Below, in pieces: positions 29,383 through 55,403 of a stretch of DNA of 64,000 bases (position 1 is its first letter; every line of letters starts with the position of its first letter). Made by a program: the position numbers and the translations under genes. A model generated the notes under the pieces. It searched no databases. It had not been told where the DNA came from and saw nothing but the letters and a program-made list of their open reading frames with translations. The DNA comes from an uncultured Chloroflexia bacterium (GTDB lineage Bacteria; Chloroflexota; Limnocylindria; Limnocylindrales; CSP1-4): positions 257,956-321,955 of the forward strand of contig CAVURK010000009.1 of NCBI GenBank assembly GCA_963743855.1. The letters run 5' to 3'.

Positions 29383-29412
29383 GTAAATGTTTAGTTCTTG
29401 CATTGTGTTGTC
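29383..29412 (+). promoter_or_regulatory. AT-rich candidate operator/promoter upstream of the alpha-glucosidase gene
   Basis: GTAAATGTTTAGTTCTTGCATTGTGTTGTC is a conspicuous AT-rich patch in ~70% GC DNA. It shares TTCTTG and TTGCAT with the lacI-upstream island. Confidence 0.3.
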
Positions 29413-29434
29413 GAGTCGTGTACCTTGCCGACCC

Positions 29435-31234: not shown

Positions 31235-31333
31235 GGAGGAGCCGATGACTTCCGGGTCACCGCGTCGCGATGGACGCGGGGATGCGCCCCAGAATGGTCC
31301 CGCTACGATGCATGGAAAGTGAGTGAACGAGTG

Positions 31334-32776: not shown

Positions 32777-32787
32777 CCGGTGCGGTC

Positions 32788-32820
32788 GGTGGGGTCCCCA
32801 TCCCCCAGGGGGACCCCACC
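32788..32820 (+). other. Intercistronic 12-bp perfect stem-loop after the SBP gene
   Basis: GGTGGGGTCCCC-(9 nt)-GGGGACCCCACC starts 12 nt after the SBP stop and lies upstream of the first permease gene. Confidence 0.5.
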
Positions 32821-32896
32821 ACCGCCGCACGCCGGATCCCGGCCAGCCTGTCATGCTCCGGCCGGCGAGCCCATGGGACAGAGGTGAAGCGACGGG

Positions 32897-33844
32897 ATGG
32901 GTGCATACACTGAGGCAGGAGTGCGAGCGAGAGACGTCGGCAAGCGTCGCTCCCTTCGCTGGCGCGTCTCCCGCGACGGGCTGAGCACGCTCGTCTTCCT
33001 GCTGCCATTCCTGATCGTCTTCGGGGTCTTCGCCTGGTTCCCGATCGTCCGGGCGTTCGTCATGAGCGTCCAGGAGACGAACCTGGTCTCCGCCCCGACG
33101 TTCGTCGGGCTCGACAACTTCGCCCGCGTCCTCGCCGATCCGCTGCTCGGCATCGCCGTTCGGAATACGGCGTGGTTCGCACTTCTTGCGCTGGTGATCG
33201 GCTTTCCGATCCCGATCATCCTGGCCGTTCTCATCAGCGAGACGCGGCGTCATCGCGGGCTCTACAGCGCCCTCGTCTACCTGCCCGTCGTCGTCCCGCC
33301 GGTCGTCTCCGTGCTGCTCTGGCGGTTCTTCTTCAACGCGGCACCGACCGGGGTGTTCAACACGATCCTCGGCTGGTTCGGGATGCACCCGTTGCCGTGG
33401 CTGCAGGAGGCGGGGAGCGCGATGCCGTCGATCGTGATCGAGGCGACGTGGGCGGCGGCTGGCGGGACCGTGATCATCTACCTGGCCGCGCTGTTGAGCG
33501 TCCCGCCCCAGCTGTACGAGGCCGCCGAGGTGGACGGCGCGTCGATCTGGCAGAAGATCTGGCACATCACCCTGCCGCAGATGCGCGCGATCCTGTTCGT
33601 GACGCTCATCCTCCAGCTGATCGCGACGTCGCAGCTGTTCACCGAGCCGCTCCTGTTCACCGGCGGTGGGCCGGCCAACTCGACGATGACGGTCCTGCTC
33701 CTCATCTATCGCTACGCGTTCCAGAACAGCCTGGGCGGCGACTACGGGATGGCGGCCGCGTTCAGCGTCATGCTCGCTGGATTCCTGGCCGTGTTCACCG
33801 CGGTCTACTTCTGGCTGACCCGCTCGTGGAGCACGAGCGCATGA
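32897..33844 (+). CDS. ABC sugar transporter permease (MalF-like)
   Basis: Six TM segments and the EAA loop YEAAEVDGASIWQKIWHITLPQM. Confidence 0.9.
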   Translation: MGAYTEAGVRARDVGKRRSLRWRVSRDGLSTLVFLLPFLIVFGVFAWFPIVRAFVMSVQETNLVSAPTFVGLDNFARVLADPLLGIAVRNTAWFALLALVIGFPIPIILAVLISETRRHRGLYSALVYLPVVVPPVVSVLLWRFFFNAAPTGVFNTILGWFGMHPLPWLQEAGSAMPSIVIEATWAAAGGTVIIYLAALLSVPPQLYEAAEVDGASIWQKIWHITLPQMRAILFVTLILQLIATSQLFTEPLLFTGGGPANSTMTVLLLIYRYAFQNSLGGDYGMAAAFSVMLAGFLAVFTAVYFWLTRSWSTSA

Positions 33845-34764
33845 GGATCCGGCGACGCCGCGGTGGAACGGCCCAACCGAGCGCCGCGGACCGCGGGATG
33901 ATCTCCGCCGCCGACTGGCGCGGTCGACGGTTCCGCTGGACGATGAATGCCATCCATGGCGGATCACCCTCGTCGTCCTGCTGATCGTCGGGCTCGGGCC
34001 GCTGATCTGGATGGCCAAGTCGTCGATCACGCCGACGCAGGACACGCTTCGGGCGCCGATGGCCCTCTTCCCGCACGGCTTCGACCTGGCGAACCTTGAC
34101 ACGGCCTGGTCGCGAACGCACATCGACCGCTACCTGTGGAACACCGTGTTGATCGCGTTCGGCTCGTGGGTCGTCCAGATCACGGTCGCGACGACCGCCG
34201 GGTTCGCGTTGTCGGTGCTCCGTCCGCGCTTCCGGCGGGTGCTGCTCGGGCTCGTGATCGCGACGCTGTTCGTCCCGCCGATCGTGCTGCTCGTGCCGCT
34301 CTACCTGACCGTCGTCGACATGCCGCTCGTCCACGTCAGCCTGATCGACTCGTTCTGGGGGGTCTGGCTGCCGGCCGGCGCCAGCGCGGTGAACATCGTC
34401 CTGATGACACGCTTCTTCGACAGCCTGCCGCGCGAGATCTTCGAGGCCGCGAAGGTCGATGGGGCCGGGCCGTTCCGGCTCTTCTGGTCCGTCGTGCTGC
34501 CGATGTCGCGCCCGATCCTGGGCGTCGTGTCCGTCTTCGCGGTGATCGCCACCTGGAAGGACTACCTGTGGCCGCTGCTCGTGCTCCGCAACCCTGACCT
34601 GCAGCCGCTATCGGTTCGGCTGCCGACCCTCCAGCCGACCACCGAGCTCGACGTCTTCATCGCCGCGCTGACGATCTCGAGCATCATCCCGATCGCCCTG
34701 TTCCTCGTCTTCCAGCGGATGTTCCTGAGCGGCGCGGGATCTCAGCGGCGCCATCAAGGGCTGA
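33841..34764 (+). pseudogene. ABC sugar transporter permease (MalG-like), frameshifts at ~33961 and ~34737
   Basis: ATGA overlap with the upstream permease. The N-terminus MRIRRRRGG...WTMNAIH lies in one frame. The core ITLVVLLIVGLGPLIWMAKSS...EAAKVDGAGPFRLFWSVVLPM lies in the -1 frame. The C-terminus LSGAIKG-stop returns to the first frame. Confidence 0.85.
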
Positions 34765-35492
34765 GTCGTGGGCCGGAGCTCGTCGCGCAGGGGCGACAAG
34801 GCAAGTGGACCCGAGCACCGGAGCGAGCAGGCTTCAAGGCCGTGAGCGAGGAGCGCAGGTCGAACGCAGCCATGTCGTTCCTGCGCGACAGCTTCGCTGA
34901 AGCGTTCCTCTTTCCACGGGTCAGCGTCGTTGTTGTAGCCGTAGCGCTCCCAGAAGCCGAGCTGGTCGTGGTCGAGGAACTCGAGCCCGCGGACCCACTT
35001 GCTGCTCTTCCAGAAGTAGCGCTTGGGGATGAGCAGGCGGAGCGGGTAGCCGTGCTCGAGCTCGAGCGGCGCGCCGCCGAACGTGTCGGCGAGCAGGACG
35101 TCGTCGTCATCGAGGACGGACAGCGGGACGTTGGCGGTGTAGCCCTGCTCGGCGTGCGAGACGACGTGGGTCGCGTTCGGCCGGACGCCGGCCATCTCCA
35201 GGATCGTCTGGATCGGGACGCCTTCCCAGGTCGTGTCGAGCTTGGTCCAGCGGGTGACGCAGTGGATGTCGGTGTTGACGGTCTTGCGCGGCAGGGCCTT
35301 GAACGCGTCCCAGGTCAGGGTGAACGGCGAGTCCACCTCGCCCCACACCTTGAAGTCCCAGGTGGCGAGGTCCGTGTGCGGGACGGATCCGTAGTGGAGG
35401 ACCGGGAACTTGTCGGTCTTGTACTGGCCGGGCGGGATCCGGCCGGCGATGGCGGGATCCTGCTCCTTGGCGCCAAAGAGACGTTCGAACAT
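34608..35492 (-). CDS. Sulfite-oxidase-like molybdopterin oxidoreductase. The conserved core ends at ~34899 and the 3' end is unresolved.
   Basis: Starts MFERLFGAKE. Contains IHCVTRWTK (Mo-ligand Cys context), LEHGYPLRLLIP and FWERYGYNNDADPWKEERF. After that point, third-position GC collapses, yet the frame stays open for 97 more codons and overlaps the convergent permease gene. Confidence 0.7.
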   Translation of the reverse strand: MFERLFGAKEQDPAIAGRIPPGQYKTDKFPVLHYGSVPHTDLATWDFKVWGEVDSPFTLTWDAFKALPRKTVNTDIHCVTRWTKLDTTWEGVPIQTILEMAGVRPNATHVVSHAEQGYTANVPLSVLDDDDVLLADTFGGAPLELEHGYPLRLLIPKRYFWKSSKWVRGLEFLDHDQLGFWERYGYNNDADPWKEERFSEAVAQERHGCVRPALLAHGLEACSLRCSGPLALSPLRDELRPTTQPLMAPLRSRAAQEHPLEDEEQGDRDDARDRQRGDEDVELGGRLEGRQPNR

Positions 35493-35597
35493 GGTGGGCG
35501 TCGTCCTCGAGGGGTGGGCTGCTGCCGAAATCCTCTCACAGACGACGCGACAGTCCCGTGCACAGGGGGCGGCCCGTGCTGCGGTACCCTTCGCGGG

Positions 35598-36368
35598 ATG
35601 CCCACGCCGGAGCCCACCGCCAGCCCGCGTCTCATCATCGTGATGCCGGCCTACAACGCCGCCCGGACCCTCGAGCGGACGTACGCCGATATCCCGCACC
35701 AGCTCGTCGACAAGATCATCCTCGTCGACGACGTGTCGCGCGACGAGACGGTCGAGATCGCCGAGCAGCTCGGGCTCGACGTCATCATCCACAGCCAGAA
35801 CCGCGGCTACGGCGGCAACCAGAAGACCTGCTATGACGCCGCGCTCGCGGCAGGCGCCGACATCGTCGTCATGCTCCACCCGGACTACCAGTACGACGCG
35901 ACCCGGATCCCGGACCTGATCGCTCCGATCGCAGCCGGCAAGCGAGACCTGATGCTCGGCAGCCGGTTCCTGGGCGATCCGTTGGCCGGCGGGATGCCGC
36001 GCTGGAAGTACGTCAGCAATCGCTTCCTGACCGGCCTCGAGAACTTCGCCTTCGGTCTCCACCTGTCCGAGTACCACACCGGGCTGCGGGCCTACAGCCG
36101 GCACCTCCTCGAGACCGTGCCGTACGAGCTCAACAGCGACGACTTCGTGTTCGACCAGGAGCTGATCGCCCAGGTCGTGGCAGCCGGGATGTCCGCCCGG
36201 ATCGGCGAGATCGCGGTCCCGACCCGCTACTTCGAGGAGGCATCGTCGGTCGGCTTCCGGCGCAGCGTCGTCTACGGCTTGTCCACCCTCCGCGTCGTCG
36301 CCCGCTACCTGCTCCACCGGCTGCGCGTCAGGCGGTCGCCGAAGCTGTCCGCCCGCCGCCCGGACTGA
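35598..36368 (+). CDS. GT2-family glycosyltransferase (polyprenol-phosphate glycosyltransferase-like)
   Basis: Contains IIVMPAYNAARTL, ILVDDVSRDET and the NRGYGGNQ motif. Confidence 0.85.
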   Translation: MPTPEPTASPRLIIVMPAYNAARTLERTYADIPHQLVDKIILVDDVSRDETVEIAEQLGLDVIIHSQNRGYGGNQKTCYDAALAAGADIVVMLHPDYQYDATRIPDLIAPIAAGKRDLMLGSRFLGDPLAGGMPRWKYVSNRFLTGLENFAFGLHLSEYHTGLRAYSRHLLETVPYELNSDDFVFDQELIAQVVAAGMSARIGEIAVPTRYFEEASSVGFRRSVVYGLSTLRVVARYLLHRLRVRRSPKLSARRPD

Positions 36369-36372
36369 ATCG

Positions 36373-37365
36373 ATGCGGATCAGCCGGAGCGCGTTGCTGC
36401 GTGGGACGCTCGGCATCGCGATCAGCGTCTTCTCGATCTGGATCCTCATCCATTCGGTCGATCTCGACGCGGCGTTCGCGGTCCTGCGGACCGCCTCGCC
36501 GGCCTGGATCGTGGTGATGCTGGTGACGGCGACGCTCGACATCGCCGCTCGCGGAGCGCGCTGGCGCGCGCCTGCTCGCCCCGATCGCGCCGCTGCCGCT
36601 ACCGGCGCGTCCTCGGCTACACGTACATCGGCTATCTCGCCAACAACGTCCTGCCGGCACGGCTCGGCGAGCTGTACCGGAGCCACGCCCTGGGCGAGAG
36701 CGAGGGGGTCAGCCGGACGACGGTGCTGGGCACGGTCGTCGTCGAGCGGGTCGTCGACACCGTGATGGTCGTGGCGATCGCCGCGGTGGCCGTCCTCGTC
36801 CTGAGCGTCCGGGGCGCGATGAGCAGCGCGGTCCTGCTCGGGCTGGCCTTCGTCGCGCTGCTGGTCATCGTCCTCGGGCTCGGGATCGCGGCACATCGTC
36901 TTCCGGGCGCCGCCCGCGTGACCGAGCTGATCGCCCGGCGCCCGCGGCTCCTCGAGCTCGCTCGTCGGTTGCGCGAGGGCCTCGCCGTCGCCGGTCAGCC
37001 GAAGGTCATCGTCGCCGCGCTGGCGTTCAGCGGCCTCGCCTGGTCCGCCTCGACGCTCACCTTCCTGGCGGCGGGCCAGGCGGTCAACGTCCCAGCTGAC
37101 GGTCGCCCAGGGCGCCCTGCTGACCAGCGGTGTCGCGCTCGCCTCGATCGTCCCGGCCGGGCCAGGGTTCGTCGGCACGTTCGAGCTGACCGTGGTGGCC
37201 ATCGCCGACACCCTCGGGATCCCGCGCGACTCGGCGTTCGCGCTCGGTCTCCTCGTCCACCTCGTGATCCTCGGGACGACCTCGATCGGTGGCGGAATCG
37301 CCATGCTCGCGCGACGCGGCTGGGAGCGAGAGCGGAAGCAGGTCGAGGAAGCCGGGGTCGCCTGA
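36373..37365 (+). pseudogene. Flippase-like / lysyl-PG-synthase-TM-domain (UPF0104) membrane protein, three +1 frameshifts (~36571, ~36598, ~37092)
   Basis: MRISRSALLRGTLGIAISVFSIWIL...ARGARWR, then ALLAPIAPLP, then YRRVLGYTYIGYLANNVLPARLGE..., then LTVAQGALLTSGVALASIVPAGPGFVGTFE.... The segments lie in successive frames, and the net span is 3n. Confidence 0.75.
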
Positions 37366-37366
37366 C

Positions 37367-39359
37367 GTGGCCGCGCAGTTTCCCCACGTCTTCGAGCCGC
37401 TGACGCTCCGCCACAAGACGTTGCGCAGTCGGATCACGTTCGGGGCGCACACCGCGAACATGGCCGAGGACGGCCTCCCCGGCGAGCGCCACATCGGCTA
37501 CTACCGGGAACGCGCGCTCGGCGGCGCCGGGATGATCGTGGTCGAGCCCGTCCCGATCCATCGGACCGGCGTCCTGACCCGGGGCAACTTCCGCCACGAC
37601 GACGACGCGATCATCCCGGCGTTCCGCCGCGTCACCGACGCCTGCCGCGAGGCGAACCCCGACGTCGTGTTGATCCACCAGCTCTATCACGTCGGCCAGC
37701 ACGGGGACGCCGACAACTCGTTCGCGCCGAACTGGTCGCCGTCGGGGCTGCCCTCGTACCACGACGCCGATGGCAGCCACGCGATGACGACCGATGAGAT
37801 CGAGGAGCTGATCGGCGGGTTCGTGGCCGCCGCCGGCCGCGCCCAGGCGTCGGGCTTCGACGGCGTCGAGATCTTCGCCGCGTACCACGCGGTCGTGGAC
37901 CAGTTCTGGACGACCTGGTCGAACCGGCGCACGGACGAGTGGGGAGGCAGCTTCGAGAACCGGATGCGCTTCTCGTCCGAGATCCTGCGCCGGATCCGGG
38001 AGCGCTGCGGGGACGACTTCATCATCGGGCTGGCGATCAGCGCAGACCCCGGCTCGGAGGCCTTCCCGTCGATCGAGGAGCTCGCCGAGATCGTGGCCTG
38101 GCACGACGAGCGGCGGCTGATGGACTACGTGACCTGCGGGACCGGCTCGTACTTCGACTTCCACCAGATCATCCCGCCGTCGCTCTACCCGCAGCGGCTT
38201 GGCGAGCCGTTCGCGGCAGCGCTCAAAGCCGTCGTCCGGCATGCGCGGGTCCAGGCCGAGAGCCACATCCGGACGCCCGAGGCGGCCGAGGCGGTCCTCG
38301 CCGCCGGCCACGCCGACATGGTCAGCATCGTGCGAGGCCAGATCGCGGATCCGCACCTGGTCGCCAAGACCCGTGACGGCCGCGCCGACGAGGTCCGACC
38401 GTGCATCTCGTGCAACCAGCTGTGCTGGGGCCGCCGCTCACGCGACTACTGGATCTCGTGCCTGGTCAACCCGTCGGCCGGGCGCGAGTTCGCATGGGGA
38501 GGCGACCGGTTCGAGCCGGCGGCGACGCCGCGTCGGGTGCTGGTCGTCGGCGGCGGCCCCGCCGGGCTCGAGGCCGCGCGGGTCGCGGCGGAGCGCGGTC
38601 ACGCCGTGACACTCCTCGAACGCGGCGAGGCACTCGGCGGTCAATTCCGCCTCGCCGGGCGACAGCCGTCGCGCGACCAGATCACCGACCTGATCGCCTG
38701 GTTCGGGCGACGGCTCGATGCGCTCGGGGTCGAGGTCCGGCTCGGCGTGGAGGCGAGCGCGGACGAGGTGGCCGCCGCAGCCGCCGACGAGGTCATCGTC
38801 GCGACCGGGTCCCGGCCGGCACGCGCCGGTTTCCAGCGTGCGCTCCCGATGGTCGATCGGCTCCCCGGCGTGGATGGCGCCGACGTCTTCGCGATCCACG
38901 ACGTGCTGGACGGCACGGCCGAGCCGGGCCGGCGCGTCGTCCTCCTCGACGACCTCGGCGACTGGCGGGGTCTCGGGACGGCGCTCCACCTCGTCGAGCA
39001 CGGTCACGACGTGACGCTCGTCACCTCGGCGGCCGTCGTCGCGGGCGGCCTGTTCCACAGTGCGGCCGACGGACCCTTGCGCAAGCGATACGCGCTGGCC
39101 GGTGGCCGGTCGATCACCTCGGCGTCGATCGCGGGCTGGCGGGACGGCATCGCCCTGGTCGTCTCGTCGCCATCGGGCGAGATCACCAGCATCGCGGCAG
39201 ACGCCCTCGTCATCGCCGAGACGCCCGTTGCCGAGACCGGGCTGGCGAGCGCGCTCACCGGAACGTGGCATCGCCTTCCACCTGGTCGGGGACGCTGTCG
39301 CCCCACGGCGGGCCAGCCTCGCCTTCTTCGAGGGCCGCGAGCTCGCCCTTCGCCTCTGA
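37367..39359 (+). pseudogene. FMN (OYE-fold)/[4Fe-4S]/FAD-NAD(P) flavoprotein of the TMADH/2,4-dienoyl-CoA reductase/amine demethylase architecture, frameshifted at ~39260
   Basis: GTG 37367 lies 1 nt after the upstream stop. The OYE N-terminal domain contains GGAGMIVVEP...HQLYHVGQ. The Cys cluster is RPCISCNQLCWGRRSRDYWISCLVNP. The ADP-binding motif is VLVVGGGPAGLEAA. The C-terminus ERGIAFHLVGDAV... lies in the +1 frame. Confidence 0.85.
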
Positions 39360-39428
39360 ACTGCGCGGAGCGCCGTACCATGGGGGCGGCACGATCTCGG
39401 CGCTGGCGCCCGCACCCGAGGAGATCAG

Positions 39429-40976
39429 ATGGCGGTCCCGGACCTCGAACACCCCACGGTGCGGCGCGGCCGGGCCGCGCGCCAGACCGAGCGACTGGCA
39501 CGTCACATGGACACGCTGCCCTTCCTGACGAGGAAGCTGCCGCCGGTCGAAGTCATCGGGGTCGGCGGTCTCGAGCAGATCGAGGCCAACGCCGACACGC
39601 TCCTCGAGCAGGTCGGCATCGAGATCGTCAACTTCCCGGAGGCGACCGAGATCTTCCGCGGCGCCGGCGCGGATGTCGACGGCCAACGGGTCCGCTTCCC
39701 GCGCGGGATGTGCCGCTCCCTGGTCCAGGCCACGGCCCCCCGGATCTTCACCCAGCTCGCCCGCAACCCGGCGCGGAGCGTGGAGATCGGCGACCCGTAC
39801 ATGGTCCTCGTCCCGACCTATGGCTCGCCGTTCATCCACAACCTCGACGAGGGCCGCCGCTACGCGACGATCGAGGACTTCCGCAACTTCGTGAAGCTGA
39901 CGTACACGAGCCTGACCCTCCACCACGGCGGCGGGACGCTGTGCGAGCCCGTCGACCTGCCGGTCAACAAGCGCCATTTCGAGATGGTCTACAGCCACAT
40001 CCGCTACTCGGACCGGGCGTTCATGGGCTCGGTCACCCATCCGAGCCGAGCCCAGGACTCGGTCGAGATGGCGAGGATCGTGTTCGGGGCCGAGACCATG
40101 GAACGCGAGCACGTGATCATGGGCCTGGCCAACGCCAACTCACCGATGTCGTGGGACTTCAACATGCTCGGCTCGGCCAAGGTCTACGCCGAGAACAACC
40201 AGATCATGCTGATCACGCCGTTCATCCTCGGTGGCGCGATGGCCCCGGTGACGGTCGCGGCCCAGGCCACCCAGACGCTCGCCGAGGCACTCGCCGGGAT
40301 GGCGTTCTGCCAGATCGTCCGGCCTGGTGCGCCGGTCATCTTCGGGTCGTTCGCGTCCTCGATGTCGATGCAGTCGGGTGCCCCGACGTTCGGGACCCCC
40401 GAGCCGCAGCTGGTCCTGTTCGTGCTCGCCGCCCTCGCCCGCCGGCTCGGCGTCCCGTTCCGGAGCGGTGGCAACTTCACGGCATCCAAGCTGCCCGACT
40501 ACCAGGCCGCCTACGAGAGCGCCATCAGCTACATGGCCACGATGCAGGCGGGGGTCAACTTCAACCTCCACACCGCGGGCTGGCTCGAGGGCGGGCTGGC
40601 GATCGGCTACGAGAAGTTCATCCTCGACGAGGACCAGGCATCGATGACCGGCGCCTACGTCGGCGGCGTCGACCTGACCGACAACGGCTACGCCCTCGAC
40701 GCGATGCTGGCGGGCGGCCCCGGCCAGCATTTTCTGGGTTCGCCGCACACGCTGGCCAACTTCGAGAACGCCTTCTGGCGCTCCGAGATCTCCAACAACG
40801 ACAGCTTCGAGCAGTGGGAGATCGACGGCGGGCTCGATGCCGCCCAGCGGGCGAACGTCCGCTGGAAGCGCCGGCTCGCCGAGTACGAGATGCCGCCGCT
40901 CGACGAGGGGATCCACGAGGAGCTCCTCGACTGGCTGGGGCGGCGCAGGGCGAGCTTCCCCGATTCGGACGTCTAG
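39429..40976 (+). CDS. MttB-superfamily (trimethylamine methyltransferase family) protein without pyrrolysine: a putative quaternary-amine methyltransferase
   Basis: Intact 515-aa ORF with no in-frame TAG. Family blocks: ITPFILGGAMAPVT, RPGAPVIFGSFASSMSMQSGAPTFGTPE, AAYES and HTAGWLEGGLAIGYEKFILD. GAGGAG lies 5 nt before the ATG. Confidence 0.9.
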   Translation: MAVPDLEHPTVRRGRAARQTERLARHMDTLPFLTRKLPPVEVIGVGGLEQIEANADTLLEQVGIEIVNFPEATEIFRGAGADVDGQRVRFPRGMCRSLVQATAPRIFTQLARNPARSVEIGDPYMVLVPTYGSPFIHNLDEGRRYATIEDFRNFVKLTYTSLTLHHGGGTLCEPVDLPVNKRHFEMVYSHIRYSDRAFMGSVTHPSRAQDSVEMARIVFGAETMEREHVIMGLANANSPMSWDFNMLGSAKVYAENNQIMLITPFILGGAMAPVTVAAQATQTLAEALAGMAFCQIVRPGAPVIFGSFASSMSMQSGAPTFGTPEPQLVLFVLAALARRLGVPFRSGGNFTASKLPDYQAAYESAISYMATMQAGVNFNLHTAGWLEGGLAIGYEKFILDEDQASMTGAYVGGVDLTDNGYALDAMLAGGPGQHFLGSPHTLANFENAFWRSEISNNDSFEQWEIDGGLDAAQRANVRWKRRLAEYEMPPLDEGIHEELLDWLGRRRASFPDSDV

Positions 40977-41006
40977 GCCGCCGCGATCCAGCCGACCGAG
41001 CCCGAG

Positions 41007-43058
41007 ATGACCGCCGGCGATCCGCTGCTCCAGCCGTTCCAGCTGCGGCACCTCACGCTCCGCAACCGGATCATGAGCCCCAGCCATGAGCCGGCCTACG
41101 CCGAGGACGGCAAGCCCAAGCTCCGGTACCAGCTCTACCACGAGGAGAAGGCGAAGGGCGGCATCGCCCTGACGATGTTCGGTGGGTCCACGAACGTGGC
41201 GCCCGACTCGCCGCCGGTCTTCGGTCAGCTGTACGCGGGGGACGACGACATCATCCCGTGGTTCCGCCAGATGGCGGACCGGATGCATGCCCACGGCACG
41301 GCCACCATGGTCCAGCTGACCCATCTCGGGCGGAGGACCGTGGCAGACGATGGCGACTGGCTGCCGACGATCTCGGCGTCATCCGTCCGCGAGCCTGCCC
41401 ACCGGAGCTTTCCCAAGGAGATGGAGGAAGGCGACATCCGGCGCGTCGTCCGCTCCTTCGGAGCGGCGGCCCGTCGCTGCAAGGAGGGCGGCCTCGACGG
41501 CCTCGAGCTGGAGGCCTACGGCCACCTGATCGACCAGTTCTGGTCGCCTCTCGTCAATGCGCGGACGGACCGGTACGGCGGCTCGCTCGAGAACCGGATG
41601 CGCTTCTCCATCGAGGTGCTCGAAGCAGTCCGCAGGGAAGTCGGCGACGAGTTCATCGTCGGCATCCGGATGAGCGGAGCGGAGGACCTGCCGGGCGGCC
41701 TGACCGAGTCCGACTGTCTCGCGATCGCGACGGCCCTTTCGCGGACCGGGATGATCGACTTCATCAACGTCATCAAGGGTTCGATCGCGACCGACGAGGC
41801 GCTGTCCCACGTCATCCCGGGGCTCGGGACGCCGCTCGGGCCGGGCCTCGAGCTGGCCGGACGGTTCCGCGAGCGTCTCGACCTGCCGATCTTCCACGCC
41901 GCCCGGATCGCGGACGTCGCGACCGCTCGATACGCCATCGCCGAGGGGCTGGTGGACATGATCGGGATGATGCGAGCGCACATGGCCGACCCGCACATCG
42001 TCCGGAAGCTGGAGGCAGGGGAGGCGGACCGGATCCGGCCGTGCGTCGGGGCGTCGTACTGCCTCAACCGGATCTACGTCGGTCTCGACGGCCTGTGCAT
42101 CCACAACGTCGCGACCGGGCGCGAGGAGACCGTCCCGCAGCTCACGGTCCCGAGCACGGGTCCGCGCCGGACGGTCGTCGTCGTGGGCGCGGGGGCCGCC
42201 GGCCTCGAGGCCGCCCGGGTCGCGGCCGAGCGCGGCCATCGGGTCATCCTGGTCGAGGCGGCCTCGGATCCGGGCGGGCAGATCCGCCTCGCAGCGCGGG
42301 CGACTCCGAGGCACGCGGATCTCATCGGGATCGTCGACTGGCTCGTCGCGGAATGCCGGCATGCTGGAGTCGAGATTCGCTTCGACACCGTCGCCGACGT
42401 GGCCGACATTCTCGCCCTCGACCCGGACGTCGTGATCGTCGCGACCGGCGGAGTGCCACGGATGCCCGCCCTGACCGAGGGCGAGGACCTGGTCGTGAGC
42501 ACCTGGGACGTCATCGGCGGGGCGGTGACGCCGTCACGTGGCGAGGTCCTGGTGTTCGACGACCACGGCGCCGAGGCAGCGCTGTCGTGCGCCGAGCGGA
42601 TGGCCTCCTCGGGTTCGACGGTCGAGATCGTGACCCCCGACCGCCATGTCGGGCTCGAAGTGACCGGGACCGACTACCCGGCCTACCTCGCCGCGTTCTA
42701 CGCCGCGGGCGTCCGGCTGACCACCGATCACCGGGTGGTCGCCGTGCGCCGGACCGCGGACCGCCGCCTCGAGGTCGACCTGCAGAGCGATTACACCTCA
42801 ACGACGACGCATCGCGTGGTCGACCAGGTCGTCGTCGAGCACGGGACCGTGCCGAACAGCGAGCTCTACCTCGGCCTGCGTCCCGGGTCGTCGAACGGCG
42901 GCGAGCTCGACCTCGACGCGTATCTCGCCGGTCGGCCGCAGACGCTCATGGTCGACGACGCGGGCACTTACCAGCTGTTCCGGATCGGTGACGCAGTCGC
43001 GAGCCGGAACATCCACGCCGCGATGTACGAGGCACGACGCCTCGCGATGGCGCTGTGA
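41007..43058 (+). CDS. DgcA/StcD-like FMN+FAD flavoprotein (N-methyl amino acid demethylase family)
   Basis: Intact 683 aa. The OYE domain contains KGGIALTMFGG and VQLTHLGR. Also present: RPCVGASYCLNRIYVGLDGLCIHN and VVVVGAGAAGLEAARVAAERGH. The length and architecture match StcD/DgcA-type demethylases. Confidence 0.85.
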   Translation: MTAGDPLLQPFQLRHLTLRNRIMSPSHEPAYAEDGKPKLRYQLYHEEKAKGGIALTMFGGSTNVAPDSPPVFGQLYAGDDDIIPWFRQMADRMHAHGTATMVQLTHLGRRTVADDGDWLPTISASSVREPAHRSFPKEMEEGDIRRVVRSFGAAARRCKEGGLDGLELEAYGHLIDQFWSPLVNARTDRYGGSLENRMRFSIEVLEAVRREVGDEFIVGIRMSGAEDLPGGLTESDCLAIATALSRTGMIDFINVIKGSIATDEALSHVIPGLGTPLGPGLELAGRFRERLDLPIFHAARIADVATARYAIAEGLVDMIGMMRAHMADPHIVRKLEAGEADRIRPCVGASYCLNRIYVGLDGLCIHNVATGREETVPQLTVPSTGPRRTVVVVGAGAAGLEAARVAAERGHRVILVEAASDPGGQIRLAARATPRHADLIGIVDWLVAECRHAGVEIRFDTVADVADILALDPDVVIVATGGVPRMPALTEGEDLVVSTWDVIGGAVTPSRGEVLVFDDHGAEAALSCAERMASSGSTVEIVTPDRHVGLEVTGTDYPAYLAAFYAAGVRLTTDHRVVAVRRTADRRLEVDLQSDYTSTTTHRVVDQVVVEHGTVPNSELYLGLRPGSSNGGELDLDAYLAGRPQTLMVDDAGTYQLFRIGDAVASRNIHAAMYEARRLAMAL

Positions 43059-43721
43059 CTACCGGAACGAGATGACGAGCAGGACCAGCGAGAGCGCCAG
43101 AAGGCAGGCGGCCAGCACGGCGGGCAGGACGATCCGGATCGTCAACGATCGCAATCGACTGCCCCCGAAACGCATCCGGTAGTCGGCGTCGAGGGCGAGC
43201 ATGTCCGCCATCGAGCGGATCGGCCGCGGGTCACCGTGGACCGACCGCAGTCGCATCGATCCGGCTCTGTGCGCGTCGACTGCATCGGCGATCGTGGTCG
43301 GGACGATCCGCACCTGGAGACGTGACTGGTCCGTCGGACTCCCGATGGGATGGATGGTGCCGAGCCACATGCCGTCCTCCCAGGCCGAATAGATCCCGGT
43401 CAGGGGAACGCCACCCAGGCCGCCGGCAAGGATCGCGTACGACTCTGCGTCGTCGGCAGCCATGATCCATGCAAAGCGTTCCCCGACAGGAAGATCCAGG
43501 CTGGTCTCACCCAGCTCCCGATAGCCCGCCTCGGTGAGCAGCGCCTGACGATCGCGGATCCCGGCGGGCGCTGCCGGTGCGCGACCCGTCGCGTCGCGCT
43601 GGCGGCGACGCCCGGTGCCTGCGTAGATCTGCCAGCTGCGCACCGCACCCGGACCGAGCCTGAGAAGGAGGATGCCCGACACGATCGCAAGCAACAGAGC
43701 CACGATCCGTTCGATCGGCAT
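43059..43721 (-). CDS. Hypothetical membrane protein (N- and C-terminal TM helices)
   Basis: Intact ORF with TM segments IVALLLAIVSGILLL and IVLPAVLAACLLALSLVLLVI. Its stop abuts the convergent flavoprotein stop. Confidence 0.5.
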   Translation of the reverse strand: MPIERIVALLLAIVSGILLLRLGPGAVRSWQIYAGTGRRRQRDATGRAPAAPAGIRDRQALLTEAGYRELGETSLDLPVGERFAWIMAADDAESYAILAGGLGGVPLTGIYSAWEDGMWLGTIHPIGSPTDQSRLQVRIVPTTIADAVDAHRAGSMRLRSVHGDPRPIRSMADMLALDADYRMRFGGSRLRSLTIRIVLPAVLAACLLALSLVLLVISFR

Positions 43722-43745
43722 GCACCGAATCCTCCTCAGCGCCGG

Positions 43746-44438
43746 TCAGGCGACGGGCCGCTCGTAGATCGCGAGCTGCCAGATCAACGTCGTGCGGTGC
43801 ATCCGTTTCACGAGGCCATGCGCCGCGAGGATGTCATCGACGTCGACAGTGCGATGCACGTAGACGCGGAAGGGTGAACGGACGATGCGGAACCTGGCGT
43901 TCAAGAGCGTGGTGCCGAGCCGGCCGAACCACGAGTCGCGAGGATAGATGAGGCCGAATCGCCGGCGCGCGAGGGTCGCCGAACGACCGACCAGCGACGC
44001 CATGTCCGCGTAACAGCAGACGACGCGATCGAGCGCGACGAGGTCCGCCGTCTGGATCTCGTCTGCAAGCGCGACGAAGTCGCCGGTGACGTATCGGACA
44101 CGATCGCCGTGGCCCTGCGCCTCCGCTTCCTCGCGCGCTACGGCGATGTAGGCACGAGACGCATCGACATCGACTGCGGACGCTGCTCCCGCCAGCAACA
44201 GTCCGAGGTGGACCGCACCGACGCCGGCGCCGATGTCGAGCACGGTATTCCCGTCGACGCCGCCAGCAGCGAGCCCATCGATCAACGCCCTCGTCAGACC
44301 CATCGGGCCATTCTCGCGGTAGGCGCGAAGCTGCCTCGCGGCGTGGCGGTCGTCGAACTGATGGTCGAGCGGGGAGTCGCCGGGCGAGCAGCAATCCATC
44401 TCAACGATCGTAGCAGCAGGTCGGCTGCGGCCGACCAC
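43746..44438 (-). CDS. Class I SAM-dependent methyltransferase
   Basis: Motif I VLDIGAGVGAV and post-I VDVDAS. The start could be GTG 44438 or ATG 44399. Confidence 0.7.
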   Translation of the reverse strand: MVGRSRPAATIVEMDCCSPGDSPLDHQFDDRHAARQLRAYRENGPMGLTRALIDGLAAGGVDGNTVLDIGAGVGAVHLGLLLAGAASAVDVDASRAYIAVAREEAEAQGHGDRVRYVTGDFVALADEIQTADLVALDRVVCCYADMASLVGRSATLARRRFGLIYPRDSWFGRLGTTLLNARFRIVRSPFRVYVHRTVDVDDILAAHGLVKRMHRTTLIWQLAIYERPVA

Positions 44439-44447
44439 GCAACCTCG

Positions 44448-46553
44448 TCAGTCCGGCACGAACTCCGGGTCGGCGAGCGCTGTCGGTTCGTCGGGCCGGG
44501 GCGGCGGTGCCTTGCGCTGGAGGACGCGCAGCTCCTCGAGCGGGATATGGCAGCTCATCAGGTGGCCCGGCTCGACCTCGACCAGCGGCGGCTCGGTCAC
44601 CTCGCACAGGCCGCGGATCACGCGTGGGCAGCGGGTGTTGAAGACGCACCCGCTCGGCGGATTGGCCGGGCTCGGGATCTCTCCCTCGAGGATGATCCGC
44701 TTGCGGTCCTCGCCGTCCACGTTCGGGACCGCGGACAGCAGGGCTTCGGTGTACGGGTGGTTCGGGCCGCGGAAGACGGTCTCGGAGTCGCCGACCTCCA
44801 TGATCCGGCCGAGGTAGAGGACCGCGATCCGGTCGGCGAGGTAGCGCACCACGCCGAGGTCGTGCGAGATCAGCAGGTAGCTCGTCTTGCTCTTGGCCTG
44901 CAGCTCCGAGAGCAGGTTGAGGATCGCGGCCTGGACCGAGACATCGAGCGCGCTGGTCGGTTCGTCGGCGACGACGATCCGCGGGTCGCCCGCGAACGCC
45001 CGGGCGATCGCCACGCGCTGCTTGAGCCCGCCCGACAGCTGGCGCGGCTTGAGGTCGAGATGACGCTGCGTGAGCCGCAGGTCGGCAGCGAGCTTGTCGA
45101 CCCGTTCGTTGACCGCCTTGCCCTTGAGCCCGGTCAGCTTGCTGACCGACCGCTGGAGGATGTGGCGCGCGGTCCAGCCGCGATTGAGCGCCGAATCCGG
45201 GTTCTGGAAGACCATCTGGATCGAGCGCTTGTCGGCCGTCGGCCGGCCCGCCGATCGGGCCGCGAGGGCGTGCTCATCGAGCTCGAGACTGCCCCCGACG
45301 TCCGGGCTCTCGATGCCGAGGATCGTCTTGGCCAAGGTCGACTTGCCGGAACCCGATTCGCCGACCAGCCCGAGGGTCTCGCCATCGAACAGCTTGAGAT
45401 CGACCTTGACCAGGGCGGGGATATCGTGGCCGCTCTGGTGGAAGGTCTTCGACACGTGGTCGACAGTCAGGGACAGATCGCCGTGGACGGTGTCCGTGCC
45501 GACGATCGGCGGCGCCTCGACGAGCTGCCCGAGGCGGTCGCGATGATGGCAGCGCGTCCAGCGACCGCCCCCGACGTCGACGATCGGCGGGATCACGGTC
45601 CGGCACAGCTCGTCGGCCAGCGGGCAGCGATCGACGAAGACGCAGGTCGGCAGGTCCGTCCCGATCTGCGGCAGGTTGCCCGGGATCGTCGACAGCGCGC
45701 GCTCGGTCTTGCGGATGCCGCGACGCGGCAGCGAGCGCAGGAGCCCGAGGGTGTACGGATGCTCGGGATGTTCGAAGACCGCGGCCGCATCGCCCTCCTC
45801 GACGATCTTGCCCGCGTACATGACCCCGACCCGGTCGCACATCGTGCGGATGACGCCGAGGTTGTGGGCGATCAGCAGGACGGCCGCGTTGGTCTCCGCC
45901 TGGAGCGAGCGGACGAGGTCGAGCACGCTCGCCTCGACGGTCGCGTCGAGACCGGTCGTCGGCTCGTCGAGGACCAGCAGCTTCGGGTCCGAGGCGAGGG
46001 CGATGGCGATGACGACGCGCTGCTGCATCCCGCCCGACAGCTGGTGCGGATAGCGCTGCGCGACAGCCTCCGGGTCGGCGATCTGGACGCGGCTGAGGGC
46101 CTTGAGCGCGTTCGCCTCGGCCTCTTTCTTGCCCTGGCCCAGGACGGTGAACGCCTCGACGACCTGCGGCCCGATCTTGGTCGACGGGTTGAGCGCCGCG
46201 CCCGGGTCCTGGTAGACCATCGAAGCGTGATGGATCCGGAACTGGCGGACGGCCTCGTCGTTCATCTTCGTGATGTCGTTGCCGTCGACGAGGATCCGCC
46301 CGCCGGTGATGACGCCGTTACGCGGCAGGTACCGGACGGCGGCGTATGCGGTGGTCGACTTGCCGCAGCCGGACTCGCCGACCAGCCCGTACGACTCGCC
46401 GGGCCGGACCTCGAACGAGACGCCGCGCAGGACCGGGCGCCGGATGCCGCGGACGACATAGGCCAGCGACAGGTCCTCGACCTTGAGTGCGGCGGGTGGT
46501 GTCGGCGGCTCCGAGGGGGGCGGCCCGCCGGTCGGCGCGATCGTGGTCGTCAT
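44448..46553 (-). CDS. Fused double ATP-binding subunit of an Opp/Dpp-type ABC transporter (DppD-DppF fusion)
   Basis: Two Walker A motifs (GESGCGKST; GESGSGKST), two LSGG signatures (LSGGMQQR; LSGGLKQR) and C-terminal oligopeptide-type extensions (HPYT...). ATGA overlap with the permease gene. Confidence 0.9.
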   Translation of the reverse strand: MTTTIAPTGGPPPSEPPTPPAALKVEDLSLAYVVRGIRRPVLRGVSFEVRPGESYGLVGESGCGKSTTAYAAVRYLPRNGVITGGRILVDGNDITKMNDEAVRQFRIHHASMVYQDPGAALNPSTKIGPQVVEAFTVLGQGKKEAEANALKALSRVQIADPEAVAQRYPHQLSGGMQQRVVIAIALASDPKLLVLDEPTTGLDATVEASVLDLVRSLQAETNAAVLLIAHNLGVIRTMCDRVGVMYAGKIVEEGDAAAVFEHPEHPYTLGLLRSLPRRGIRKTERALSTIPGNLPQIGTDLPTCVFVDRCPLADELCRTVIPPIVDVGGGRWTRCHHRDRLGQLVEAPPIVGTDTVHGDLSLTVDHVSKTFHQSGHDIPALVKVDLKLFDGETLGLVGESGSGKSTLAKTILGIESPDVGGSLELDEHALAARSAGRPTADKRSIQMVFQNPDSALNRGWTARHILQRSVSKLTGLKGKAVNERVDKLAADLRLTQRHLDLKPRQLSGGLKQRVAIARAFAGDPRIVVADEPTSALDVSVQAAILNLLSELQAKSKTSYLLISHDLGVVRYLADRIAVLYLGRIMEVGDSETVFRGPNHPYTEALLSAVPNVDGEDRKRIILEGEIPSPANPPSGCVFNTRCPRVIRGLCEVTEPPLVEVEPGHLMSCHIPLEELRVLQRKAPPPRPDEPTALADPEFVPD

Positions 46554-47440
46554 TCGTTGAGCACCGATTGCAGGCTGTCGGCGATGAGGTTGACCGCGAT
46601 GACCGTGCTGGCGATGGCCAGCGCCGGGAAGAGGGTCGGCCACCAGATCCCGGAGATCATGTTCGTGTATTCCTGGCTGACGCTGAGGCCCCAGTCGGGC
46701 GATGGCGGCTGGAGGCCGACGCCGAGGAACGACAGGGTGGCGACGGTGAAGATCGCGTAGCCGAAGCGGACCGTCATCTCGACGACCGTCGGCCCAAGGA
46801 CATTCGGGAAGATCTCGCGCGACAGGATGAACAAGCCCGACTCGCCGCGCAGCTTGGCCGCGGTCACGTAGTCGAGCTCACGCTCGGACAGGACCGCCGA
46901 ACGCACCGTCCGGGCGACGATCGGCGTGAACAGGATCCCGACGACCGCCACCACGACGAGTGGCGAGGTGCCGAGGACGACGAGCGTCAGCAGGGCGACG
47001 AGGACGACCGGCAAGGCCAGGAAGGCCTCGATGATCCGGCCCAGGACGTCATCGACCTTCCCGCGGTAGTAGCCCATCGTCAGCCCGAGGAGGGTTCCGC
47101 ACGTCACGCCGAGGAGTGCCGCCAGCGGAGCCACGATCAGCACGTCCCGCGAGCCGACCATCACTCGCGACAGGACGTCGCGCCCGATCCGGTCCGTTCC
47201 CATCCAATGCTCCGGGCTCGGCGGCAGGTGTCCCGTGGTGAAGTAGTTGAACGGGTCGTACGGCGTGATCCGCTGGCCGAGGACCGCGCAGATGATCCAG
47301 CCGATGATGATGATGTTGCCGATGATGAACGCCGGGCGGTGGAGCAGGAGCCGGATGGTCTCGCGGCGCGCCTGCGACCGCTCCGAGACGGGTGCTGCCA
47401 CGGTGGGTCCGAGCGGGGTCGGCTCGACGATGACGTCCAT
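46550..47440 (-). CDS. Opp/Dpp-type ABC transporter permease (DppC-like)
   Basis: Starts at the internal ATG (MDVIVEP...), overlapping the upstream stop as TGATG. Contains the HWMGTDRIGRDVLSR motif and six TM segments. Confidence 0.9.
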   Translation of the reverse strand: MDVIVEPTPLGPTVAAPVSERSQARRETIRLLLHRPAFIIGNIIIIGWIICAVLGQRITPYDPFNYFTTGHLPPSPEHWMGTDRIGRDVLSRVMVGSRDVLIVAPLAALLGVTCGTLLGLTMGYYRGKVDDVLGRIIEAFLALPVVLVALLTLVVLGTSPLVVVAVVGILFTPIVARTVRSAVLSERELDYVTAAKLRGESGLFILSREIFPNVLGPTVVEMTVRFGYAIFTVATLSFLGVGLQPPSPDWGLSVSQEYTNMISGIWWPTLFPALAIASTVIAVNLIADSLQSVLNE

Positions 47441-48393
47441 CAGCCTTGGGTATCGAGCCGGATCCGCGGGTTCATCCATGCCGTGATCAGGTCGGCCGTC
47501 AGGGTCGCCAGCATGTAGACGACCCCGATGACGATGACGCCCGCGGTGAGCATCGGCAGGTCCTTGTGCTGGGCGGCCTGCAACATCGTCGCGCCCATCC
47601 CGTTGTAGTTGAAGATCTTCTCGACCGCGATGATCCCGCCGAACAGGTAGCCGATCTGGACGGCGATGACCGCGATCGTCGGGACCAGCGCGTTACGCAG
47701 GACGTGGCGCCGCATCGTCTGGCTCGTGGTCAGCCCTTTCATCGTGGCCGTCCGCGTGTAGTCGGACTGGAGCGCCTCGATCGCGCCGGCGCGGGTCATC
47801 CGGGCGATGTAGCCGAAGTAGACGATCGCCATCGCGATCGCCGGCATCAGCAGGTAGCGGACCTGGGTCGGGATGTCCGCGTTCGGCGGCGGCGTGGCGA
47901 GCACGGGTAACCAGCCGAGCTGGACGCCGACGACCACGACGAGGATCGTGCCTGTGATGAACTCCGGGATCGACGACGTGGTGACCCCGAGCAGAACGAT
48001 CGCCCGATCCGCCTTGCGGTCACGCCGTCTCGCGGCATAGAGCCCGGCGATGATGCTGAGCGGGATGGTGATGAGCAGGGCCAGGAAGGCCAGCTTGGCC
48101 GATCTCCCGACCGCGCCCAGGATCTGCGGCAGGACATCCTGCTGCGAGGCAAACGATTCGCCGAAATCGAGCGTGACCAGGCGGCGCATCTGGTCGACGT
48201 ACTGGACGATGAGCGGCCGGTCCGTTCCGAGCCGCTGGTTCAGGGCGTCGACGCTCTCCTGCGGCGCGAACGGGCCCAGGATCGTCCTGCCGACGTTGGA
48301 CGGCAGCATGTTCGTGATGACGAAGACGATCGAGGCGAGCAACCACAGTGTGACCAGGGACAGGGCCAACCTGCGCGCAAAGTAGCGGGTCAT
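47440..48393 (-). CDS. Opp/Dpp-type ABC transporter permease (DppB-like)
   Basis: Begins MTRYFARRLALSLVTLWLLASIVFVI. The EAA-type loop is DYTRTATMKGLTTSQTMRRHVLRNAL. Confidence 0.9.
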   Translation of the reverse strand: MTRYFARRLALSLVTLWLLASIVFVITNMLPSNVGRTILGPFAPQESVDALNQRLGTDRPLIVQYVDQMRRLVTLDFGESFASQQDVLPQILGAVGRSAKLAFLALLITIPLSIIAGLYAARRRDRKADRAIVLLGVTTSSIPEFITGTILVVVVGVQLGWLPVLATPPPNADIPTQVRYLLMPAIAMAIVYFGYIARMTRAGAIEALQSDYTRTATMKGLTTSQTMRRHVLRNALVPTIAVIAVQIGYLFGGIIAVEKIFNYNGMGATMLQAAQHKDLPMLTAGVIVIGVVYMLATLTADLITAWMNPRIRLDTQG

Positions 48394-48425
48394 GCCCCCA
48401 CCAAAGCGGGCCGCGCGACGTCAGG

Positions 48426-48451
48426 CATGGGGCGCTGGCTGGCGCCCCATG
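48426..48451 (-). other. Intercistronic 10-bp perfect stem-loop between the SBP and permease genes
   Basis: CATGGGGCGC-tggctg-GCGCCCCATG lies in the 68-nt gap downstream of the SBP stop (48462). Confidence 0.5.
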
Positions 48452-48461
48452 CCGTGGTCGT

Positions 48462-53019: not shown

Positions 53020-53127
53020 AACGTGCAGGCCCGTCGAGGGTTCACGCGGCCGAAGCACTGAGGCGTACACTCGTCGTCCGCAAGAGGCCGATTCGCTGTC
53101 TTGCGACGAGGTCCAGGGGTGGGTGAC

Positions 53128-55341: not shown

Positions 55342-55403
55342 GCCTTCCTCGGCCGACCCGGTCGCGAAACGCGGTTCCCGCTAGAGTTGGCCGGGTGACG
55401 GAC

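Follow-up and report, generated by a model that had tools for sequence, protein, structure and literature searches.

We analysed a 64,000-nucleotide (nt) stretch of DNA from an uncultured soil Chloroflexia bacterium of the Limnocylindrales (contig CAVURK010000009.1 of assembly GCA_963743855.1, positions 257,956 to 321,955; hereafter the window), which has a G+C content of ~70 %. The genes in question are flav1, MttB-1 and flav3, a trio in which two flavoprotein genes flank a gene for an MttB-family methyltransferase, and which probably constitutes a module for the stepwise N-demethylation of an imported betaine, i.e. a carboxylate-bearing quaternary ammonium compound. Inspection of open reading frames (ORFs) and Pfam matches gave the following layout:

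37367-39359, + strand: flav1, with the Pfam domains Oxidored_FMN and Pyr_redox_2; 'F1' subfamily (see below); reading frame broken
39418-39423, + strand: GAGGAG, a Shine-Dalgarno-like site read from the sequence, 5 nt before the ATG of MttB-1 at 39429
39429-40976, + strand: MttB-1, 515 amino acids (aa), uninterrupted, with the Pfam domain MTTB (PF06253)
41007-43058, + strand: flav3, 683 aa, with the Pfam domains Oxidored_FMN and Pyr_redox_2; 'F3' family (see below)

The three genes are co-directional, as a first-pass annotation of this DNA had claimed, and its gaps of 69 nt between flav1 and MttB-1 (39360-39428) and 30 nt between MttB-1 and flav3 (40977-41006) agree with the coordinates; the strong GAGGAG site that it had placed upstream of MttB-1 was located as well. 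This arrangement suggests that the three genes are co-transcribed as an operon-like module.

The MttB-1 protein matches PF06253 with 683.5 bits (cut-off 25) over profile positions 2-500 of 500. Its score against TIGR02369, the pyrrolysine trimethylamine methyltransferases, is 226.8 bits, below the cut-off of 525, and ORF 39429-40976 has no internal stop codon, hence no in-frame UAG; on these two grounds a pyrrolysine trimethylamine methyltransferase was rejected. Among proteins of solved structure, 4YYC (E=3e-182) is the one most similar to MttB-1, with D. hafniense MtgB (E=1e-108) in second place. The latter binds glycine betaine through Y97, R312, H348 and F356 (PMC13080624), the first three of which correspond to Y131, R345 and H381 in MttB-1, while the position of F356 is occupied by G389, with W385 four residues earlier. 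It should be underlined that this three-of-four pattern is common to all aerobic MtgB-like proteins examined, including the MtgC-linked ones, so that the four residues do not discriminate between substrates for MttB-1. The pocket of the MttB-1 clade is canonical, with four positions (N138, H228, I259 and G268) fixed differently from the MtgC-linked relatives.

MttB-1 is 94-95 % identical to its counterparts in Limnocylindrales/Chloroflexota metagenome-assembled genomes (MAGs). In a neighbour-joining (NJ) tree the Chloroflexota orthologues form one clade, with or without a neighbouring flavoprotein or importer gene, and this clade is nested among MtgC-linked MtgB-like proteins. An orthologue of 72-78 % identity is found downstream of MtgD and RamA homologues at ten Acidimicrobiia/Actinomycetota loci; at 8-9 of the ten, homologues of MtgC and DUF1638 also lie upstream (the remaining loci being cut by a contig end or without an MtgC hit), MTHFR then follows the orthologue at both loci checked (2/2), and a DMGDH-like gene stands further upstream in 7/10. 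The S. meliloti homologue (56 % identical) lies in the published MtgBCDE cluster, and that of Azoarcus (62 %) beside betA, betB, folD and ETF-QO. We therefore predict with high confidence that MttB-1 is a corrinoid-dependent methyltransferase, and, as judged from its sequence, it is a non-pyrrolysine, MtgB-like quaternary amine:corrinoid methyltransferase.

With regard to flav3, the full-length protein shares 51-55 % identity with alphaproteobacterial proteins, including ones named 'N-methyl-L-proline N-demethylase HpbA' by PGAP. Pfam matches, together with an alignment that comprised PGAP-named HpbA and a further six F3 proteins, showed features of the HpbA/StcD type: the motifs SHEPAY, AYGH and CVGAxYC...C, the OYE-FMN and FAD-type domains, and a length of ~680 aa. 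HpbA has been genetically validated in Paracoccus denitrificans (PMC3950512). A Ralstonia DgcA, defined by the synteny pepD-hp-dgcA-dgcB-etfAB-gbcAB, is 44 % identical both to flav3 and to HpbA; the cluster is laid out as in PMC12093977. The NJ tree unites flav3 with the HpbA-type proteins to the exclusion of DgcA, a placement of modest support given that the tree holds one DgcA sequence and no bootstrap values. The earlier description of the 683-aa product as StcD/DgcA-like is borne out by these identities. The same annotation had singled out a three-Cys variant of the cluster motif; the segment, RPCVGASYCLNRIYVGLDGLC, is indeed present, with Cys346, Cys352 and Cys364 and an alanine for the second Cys of the four-Cys motif, but it is not peculiar to flav3, since CVGAxYC...C occurs in every HpbA-type protein and in the one DgcA aligned with it. 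Accordingly named in what follows, flav3 is a predicted iron-sulphur (Fe-S) flavoprotein N-demethylase of the HpbA/StcD/DgcA family.

The flav1 product differs from flav3, to which it is 32 % identical (34 % to DgcA). It carries the full CxxCxxxC...C cluster reported by the first-pass annotation, in the segment RPCISCNQLCWGRRSRDYWISC, with Cys346, Cys349, Cys353 and Cys365. With a discrete group of rhizobial/roseobacter 'FAD-dependent oxidoreductases' that have the same full cluster it shares 56-59 % identity, and on sequence grounds it is assigned with them to a separate four-Cys subfamily, F1, of Fe-S flavoproteins with an FMN (OYE-like) and an FAD domain. F1 genes occur in betaine/imino-acid clusters, and in many cases an F3 gene lies within a few kb. 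In Shinella, the F1 cluster comprises a ProU-type ATP-binding cassette (ABC) transporter, an Ldh-family oxidoreductase, a P5C-reductase-like gene, an HpbA-type gene, an electron-transfer flavoprotein (ETF) and a Rieske oxygenase; Pseudosulfitobacter has a single operon in the order F3, proline-racemase-family gene, NAD-binding gene and F1; and F1 adjoins an MR/MLE enzyme in Mesorhizobium and hydroxyproline-catabolism-type genes in Rhizobium ACO-34A.

An entirely different assignment would make both flavoproteins NAD(P)H-dependent enoate/2,4-dienoyl-CoA reductases of the FadH/OYE type, whose place beside MttB-1 is coincidental. The top solved structures for flav3 agree with it, being 2-naphthoyl-CoA reductase (E ~1e-61) and FadH (~1e-59), ahead of TMADH (~1e-41), as does the FadH-like CxxCxxxC...C spacing that flav1 has and flav3 lacks. 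The top NCBIfam match of both proteins, TIGR03997 (mycofactocin-system FadH/OYE oxidoreductase 2), points the same way, but at 522.9 bits for flav1 and 506.7 bits for flav3 it lies far under the cut-off of 793. The identity of 51-59 % to HpbA-type and F1-type proteins is, moreover, much above the similarity to FadH. The tyrosine of the FadH segment 'EGYLINEF' is catalytic and acts as proton donor; it aligns with His in flav3 (AYGHLIDQF) and with Ala in flav1 (AYHAVVDQF). In TMADH, Cys30 links FMN covalently as 6-S-cysteinyl-FMN, and this residue aligns with Glu in flav3 (SHEPAY) and Thr in flav1 (AHTANM). The first-pass annotation had likened the cluster of flav1 to that of TMADH/FadH-type enzymes; in its active-site motifs flav1 is of neither type, and it belongs to the separate subfamily F1. 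Together with the conserved linkage to MttB described below, these results make the reductase assignment highly improbable, and both proteins fall with the amine demethylase-type enzymes rather than with the enoate/dienoyl-CoA reductases, a grouping that the first-pass annotation had named as grounds for refutation.

The reading frame of flav1 requires comment, because the first-pass annotation had treated 37367-39359 as one gene and thereby silently joined two frames. The interval measures 1993 nt, which is not divisible by three, and the frame opening at 37367 has no stop at 39359 and continues to 41089, whereas the conserved C-terminus (ERGIAFHLVGDAVAPRRASLAFFEGRELALRL, followed by the stop) sits in the +1 frame. 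Alignment with seven intact orthologues placed one extra base at ~39258-39262, 33 codons ahead of the stop, so that residues 1-630 are encoded in one frame and the last 31 codons in the +1 frame. In a large protein search with the repaired flav1 as query, most of the 120 homologues listed were 661-667 aa long, with 663 aa as the most frequent length; the orthologues in it were 76-91 % identical and bore generic names that gave no functional clue. A programmed frameshift was excluded, as the orthologues compared run in a single frame.

The insertion might mean that flav1 is a real pseudogene here and that the trio is decaying, leaving MttB-1 and flav3 alone functional. It does cut off the last 31 codons, including the conserved GD(A/C)V/IAPRR segment, and the flavoprotein content differs among related genomes. 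However, MttB-2 (a second MttB-family gene), LPG-synthase-TM-like, SoxA-like and ABC1 kinase genes are also split within the same 64 kb, the aldehyde dehydrogenase and GlnA-like genes give truncated matches, and hits are similarly fragmented at several related long-read MAG loci. Since breaks affect so many genes of the window as well as the related loci, the flav1 frameshift is probably an assembly indel, and we consider a pseudogene unlikely. The split or truncated genes, which are unusually numerous, include a GlnA fragment (7557-8357), a permease+GT2 'fusion' (34011-36368), the LPG-synthase-TM-like gene (36373-37403), flav1 itself (39258-39262), the aldehyde dehydrogenase (51024-53126), the ABC1 kinase (53632-55757), MttB-2 (55640-55660) and the SoxA-like gene (60693-62709), and the window looks like an indel-rich assembly rather than a region of real pseudogenes.

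To describe the conservation of the trio, 80 related loci were compared overall, and counts are given for the 55 Chloroflexota-clade species-level loci with enough flanking DNA. The full order flav1-MttB-flav3 was present in 16/55, flav1-MttB only in 26/55 and MttB-flav3 only in 3/55, and MttB stood without either flavoprotein in 10/55. Conservation in related genomes, on which the first-pass annotation had made its proposal depend, was thus seen for the full trio at 16 loci and for the flav1-MttB pair, with or without flav3, at 42/55. The gaps were mostly 23-80 nt between flav1 and MttB and 6-46 nt between MttB and flav3.

Linkage of the same families is also evident in Proteobacteria, where F3 lies directly downstream of MttB at 18/66 species-level loci and within 6 kb at 28/66. 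These MttB proteins belong to a distinct clade with a changed pocket, in which RCAGNF and HxAGF[V/L]DGLL replace R[ST]GG and HxAGWLEGGL (loci L086, L087, L173 and L174-L253), and which is a candidate for a new substrate specificity. An HpbA-type gene frequently comes after the MttB gene in this clade and a divergent LysR gene often precedes it, as in the LysR|MttB->F3 units of Shinella PSBB067 and Roseinatronobacter. In S. fredii NGR234 the neighbour of MttB is an F1 gene in convergent orientation, after which comes an OpuAC gene; this F1 gene on pNGR234b (L087, 11610-13689) appears as two overlapping frames and two tblastn pieces and may be a frameshift or a pseudogene in that record. In Aliiroseovarius crassostreae (L246, 5298-11641) a divergent TetR gene is followed by a compact MttB->F3->F1 operon, which contains the families of the trio in another order and in another phylum. 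Because the linkage recurs across MttB clades, phyla and gene orders, a shared pathway is strongly supported.

The most constant neighbour of MttB-1 in the Chloroflexota clade is, however, a convergent Opp-type ABC ATPase, found at 54/55 loci. In the window it belongs to an importer operon that faces the trio, and a second methylated-amine module (54435-62709) lies beyond it, with MttB-2, DMGDH-like, amidohydrolase and SoxA-like genes in this order:

43059-43721, - strand: ORF without family match at the tail of the importer operon, abutting the flav3 stop (43058/43059)
43746-44438, - strand: class-I S-adenosylmethionine (SAM) methyltransferase, tail of the importer operon
44448-46643, - strand: fused double ATPase of an Opp/Dpp-type ABC importer, convergent on the trio; Pfam ABC_tran twice plus oligo_HPY
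46550-47479 and 47440-48393, - strand: two ABC permeases of the same importer; Pfam BPD_transp_1, OppC_N and BPD_transp_1_N
48421-50100, - strand: family-5 solute-binding protein of the ABC importer; SBP_bac_5 at residues 507-821 of a 960-codon ORF; the start is uncertain, as the open frame reaches 51303 and 50100 is approximate
54435-55757 and 55444-56961: MttB-2, split, with the N-terminus in the frame of the first ORF and the rest in the second
56990-59458: DMGDH-like DAO+GCV_T protein, downstream of MttB-2
59455-60696: amidohydrolase of the second module
60693-61421 and 61540-62709: SoxA-like protein of the second module, split

The nearest relatives of the solute-binding protein in the PDB are distant (nickel, dipeptide and opine binders; E ~1e-27) and give no clue to the substrate. 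The SAM methyltransferase and the ORF at 43059-43721 were considered as components of the trio and rejected, as none of the 80 related loci has a counterpart of either. MttB-2 is 41 % identical to MttB-1 and has no aromatic residue at the position of MtgB Y97 (Val in the PDB alignment). The region upstream of flav1 (29387-37403) encodes an alpha-amylase-family protein, a sugar ABC importer, a GT2 glycosyltransferase and a membrane protein of flippase-like type; in many related loci a GT2 gene likewise precedes flav1, but it is probably unrelated to the trio.

These surroundings could be taken to mean that the genes share no common pathway and merely sit in a methylated-amine catabolic island, where MttB-1 would be a second glycine-betaine MtgB beside an importer and the flavoproteins would degrade independently acquired N-methyl amino acids. 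The importer is indeed a more constant companion of MttB-1 than the flavoproteins, both of which are absent from ten loci, and the window also holds MttB-2, DMGDH-like and SoxA-like genes. Opposed to such an island are the recurrence of MttB with F3 and/or F1 in Chloroflexota and Proteobacteria, in different MttB clades and gene orders and with very short gaps, and the self-contained LysR|MttB->F3 units of two genes, which have no other amine genes nearby. We regard clustering without a shared pathway as quite improbable. MttB-2, too, is paired with a demethylase, of the DMGDH-like kind; this module repeats the two-stage logic of the trio and was counted in favour of stepwise demethylation.

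An MttB-family methyltransferase needs a corrinoid protein, a methyl-corrinoid:tetrahydrofolate methyltransferase and a reductive activase, a requirement left out of the first-pass annotation. The orthologues of 72-78 % identity sit in operons of this very kind (MtgC-DUF1638-MtgD-RamA-MttB-MTHFR), and MttB-1 would therefore need corrinoid partners that are encoded elsewhere. MtgC-DUF1638-MtgD-RamA clusters do exist in Limnocylindria/Chloroflexota MAGs, and two of them adjoin ETF genes. In these two (L098, 1-13448, and L096, 19-7769, both from Chloroflexota MAGs) the ETF beta and alpha genes stand beside the cluster; in L098 a canonical MttB closes the cluster, and a DMGDH-like gene is present as well. 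Clusters of this type look like the canonical glycine-betaine pathway of the lineage. The MAG VAR_78_metabat_359 contains flav1-MttB (MttB 83 % identical to MttB-1) on one contig and MtgC-DUF1638-MtgD-RamA-MttB (MttB 67 % identical) on another, and since an MtgC-linked MttB is thus already present, MttB-1 is an additional paralogue in that genome. A role of the flavoproteins as corrinoid reactivators was set aside, because flav3 is homologous to validated demethylases and RamA-type activases exist in the lineage.

Sequential demethylation, as the first-pass annotation had proposed, remains the best reading of the trio, because its flavoproteins belong to amine demethylase-type families, because the linkage is conserved (16/55 and 42/55) and because the Aliiroseovarius operon unites the same families. 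On the observed family assignments, gene linkage and partner genes of related genomes, we infer the substrate, order of steps, electron acceptor and co-transcription as follows. The convergent Opp-type importer probably supplies the substrate. By orthology, MttB-1 would take a single methyl group off the quaternary nitrogen and load it onto the Co(I) corrinoid of an MtgC-type protein, from which an MtgD-type enzyme would pass it to tetrahydrofolate, while a RamA-type activase would keep the corrinoid reduced, these partners being encoded elsewhere in the genome. Family membership and context then suggest that flav3 carries out the oxidative demethylation of the tertiary amine product (the known substrates of the HpbA/DgcA family, N-methylproline and dimethylglycine, are tertiary amines), and that flav1 acts on a further N-methyl group, possibly of a secondary amine, or on an imino intermediate. 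The electrons of the flavoproteins would go to an unlinked ETF or another acceptor. It is possible that a single substrate loses three methyl groups in this way.

As judged from the sequence of MttB-1, glycine betaine is its single most likely substrate, with a probability that falls somewhat short of even, and the other betaines in sum, e.g. proline or hydroxyproline betaine, seem about as likely. Glycine betaine is favoured by the canonical pocket and by the identity to the MtgC-linked orthologues; another betaine is favoured by paralogy, the Opp-type importer and the genes around F1 and F3. In its most specific form, the second option is a module for proline betaine, or for a related N,N-dimethyl imino-acid betaine, instead of glycine betaine: MttB-1 would take the place of the Rieske oxygenase HpbBC and form N-methylproline from proline betaine, flav3 would act as HpbA and yield proline, and flav1 would either oxidise the imino acid so formed or handle an analogue that is hydroxylated or epimeric. 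In agreement with this, flav3 branches with the alphaproteobacterial HpbA-type proteins rather than with DgcA (51-55 % versus 44 %; NJ tree), F1 genes are found beside proline-racemase-family, ornithine-cyclodeaminase, Ldh-family, P5C-reductase-like, MR/MLE (HpbD-like) and hydroxyproline-catabolism-type genes, MttB-1 is the extra paralogue in a MAG that has a canonical MtgC-linked MttB, and both its G268 and the 'GNF' that follows its R345 recur in the flavoprotein-linked MttB clade of Proteobacteria. The pocket itself argues otherwise, since MttB-1 retains the WLEGG of canonical aerobic MtgB, with only four positions fixed differently, whereas the flavoprotein-linked MttB proteins of Proteobacteria have a changed one. 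Also opposed are the identity of 72-78 % to MttB proteins from MtgC-DUF1638-MtgD-RamA operons, with the DMGDH-like gene upstream in seven of ten, and the Pfam scans, which found no hpbD, hpbBC, putA, betaine-transporter or proline-catabolic gene in the window. On balance we consider degradation of proline betaine a less probable alternative.

Several observations weigh against stepwise demethylation by the trio as a unit. A promoter/terminator scan of 36000-44600 gave no signal and so defined no transcription-unit boundary; because the scan was empty, the transcription unit is deduced from gap sizes and synteny. The frame of flav1 is broken in this window. The trio is not universal, MttB-1 being alone at 10/55 loci and accompanied by flav1 without flav3 at 26/55. 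The clues to the substrate diverge, as the pocket is that of canonical MtgB and the relatives of the flavoproteins occur in proline-betaine-type clusters, and the importer is of the Opp/Dpp type and no typical betaine transporter. Finally, no homologue of DgcB, ETF, a corrinoid protein, MtgD or RamA was found in the 64 kb of the window (tblastn, E<=1e-3; Pfam scans), and all partners are therefore assumed from other genomes. The remark of the first-pass annotation that DgcB and ETF are missing nearby was accurate in this respect, and Ralstonia DgcB, EtfA and EtfB used as tblastn queries likewise gave no hit beside flav1 or flav3, neither in the window nor in the 80 related loci. An Rfam scan of the whole window detected no cobalamin riboswitch and no other riboswitch.

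A broader possibility, which we put forward only tentatively, is that MttB-family methyltransferases and HpbA/DgcA-type demethylases together form a widespread hybrid pathway, that the flavoprotein-linked MttB paralogues have specificities new for aerobes, and that F1 is a new amine dehydrogenase family. In such a pathway the first betaine methyl group would be kept as methyl-tetrahydrofolate by B12 chemistry and the remaining ones would be removed oxidatively. The paralogues with new specificity, e.g. for proline or hydroxyproline betaine, would be the changed-pocket clade of Proteobacteria and possibly the MttB-1 clade of Limnocylindrales.

In soil, in the rhizosphere and in the sea, betaines (e.g. 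glycine betaine and proline betaine) count among the major osmolytes and the major sources of carbon and nitrogen. An aerobic B12-dependent route for degrading glycine betaine came to be recognised as late as 2025 (PMC12478193), and the routes described so far for proline betaine involve Rieske oxygenases. If stepwise demethylation by the trio is true, Chloroflexota and many Proteobacteria would possess an oxygen-sparing, methyl-conserving first step, the cobalamin demand of betaine turnover would reach new lineages and possibly new substrates, and candidate functions would be at hand for two large unannotated groups that go by the generic names 'trimethylamine methyltransferase family protein' and 'FAD-dependent oxidoreductase'.

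Among known systems, the closest is the aerobic, cobalamin-dependent MtgBCD(E)/MetF2 glycine betaine system of Ruegeria pomeroyi and Sinorhizobium meliloti (Mausz et al. 2025, PMC12478193). The S. meliloti homologue of 56 % identity lies beside MtgC, DUF1638, MtgD, MTHFR and RamA, the Acidimicrobiia operons with the orthologues of 72-78 % identity are of this same type, and the pocket of MttB-1 is that of the same clade. In contrast to that system, MttB-1 is detached from mtgC, mtgD and ramA, is flanked by two OYE-type Fe-S flavoproteins and faced by an Opp-type importer, and is an additional paralogue in at least one related genome. The description in PMC12478193 mentions downstream demethylation genes near mtgBCD and does not mention HpbA/DgcA-type neighbours.

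The HpbA/StcD enzymes (Kumar et al. 2014, PMC3950512) resemble flav3 in length, domain order and the motifs SHEPAY, EAYGHL and CVGAxYC...C. In Paracoccus the demethylation preceding HpbA is performed by the Rieske oxygenases HpbB/C (PMC3950512), in place of which the trio has an MttB-family methyltransferase, and no hpbD, hpbBC or putA lies nearby. The DgcA-DgcB-ETF system of Pseudomonas, Vibrio and Ralstonia (PMC12093977) has the family of flav3 and the three-Cys motif in common with the trio, at 44 % identity to Ralstonia DgcA, and DgcA acts on the tertiary amine that results from the first demethylation of glycine betaine, as proposed here for flav3. Unlike dgcA, neither flav1 nor flav3 is adjoined by dgcB or etfAB, and flav3 branches with the HpbA type.

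The fold and the presumed methyl transfer from a quaternary amine to cob(I)alamin are shared with the anaerobic MtgB of D. hafniense (PMC13080624) and with E. limosum MtpB, MtcB and MtyB. Unlike D. hafniense MtgB, MttB-1 has Gly at the equivalent of F356 and Trp four residues earlier, like every aerobic MtgB-like protein examined. The products of the betaine methyltransferases of these anaerobes are not known to be demethylated further by adjacent flavoproteins. Both flav1 and flav3 have the three-part build of TMADH, histamine dehydrogenase and FadH, with an OYE-like FMN barrel, a Cys cluster and an FAD/ADP-type domain, but their similarity to TMADH/FadH is far below that to the HpbA-type and F1-type proteins, and the Cys30 of TMADH is absent. 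In the literature searched we found no description that links MttB-family genes with DgcA, StcD or HpbA-type genes. Each component of the trio has its place in a known family, be it aerobic MtgB-like, HpbA/DgcA-like or a sister family as yet uncharacterised, and it is the combination itself that is a new variant of betaine demethylation.

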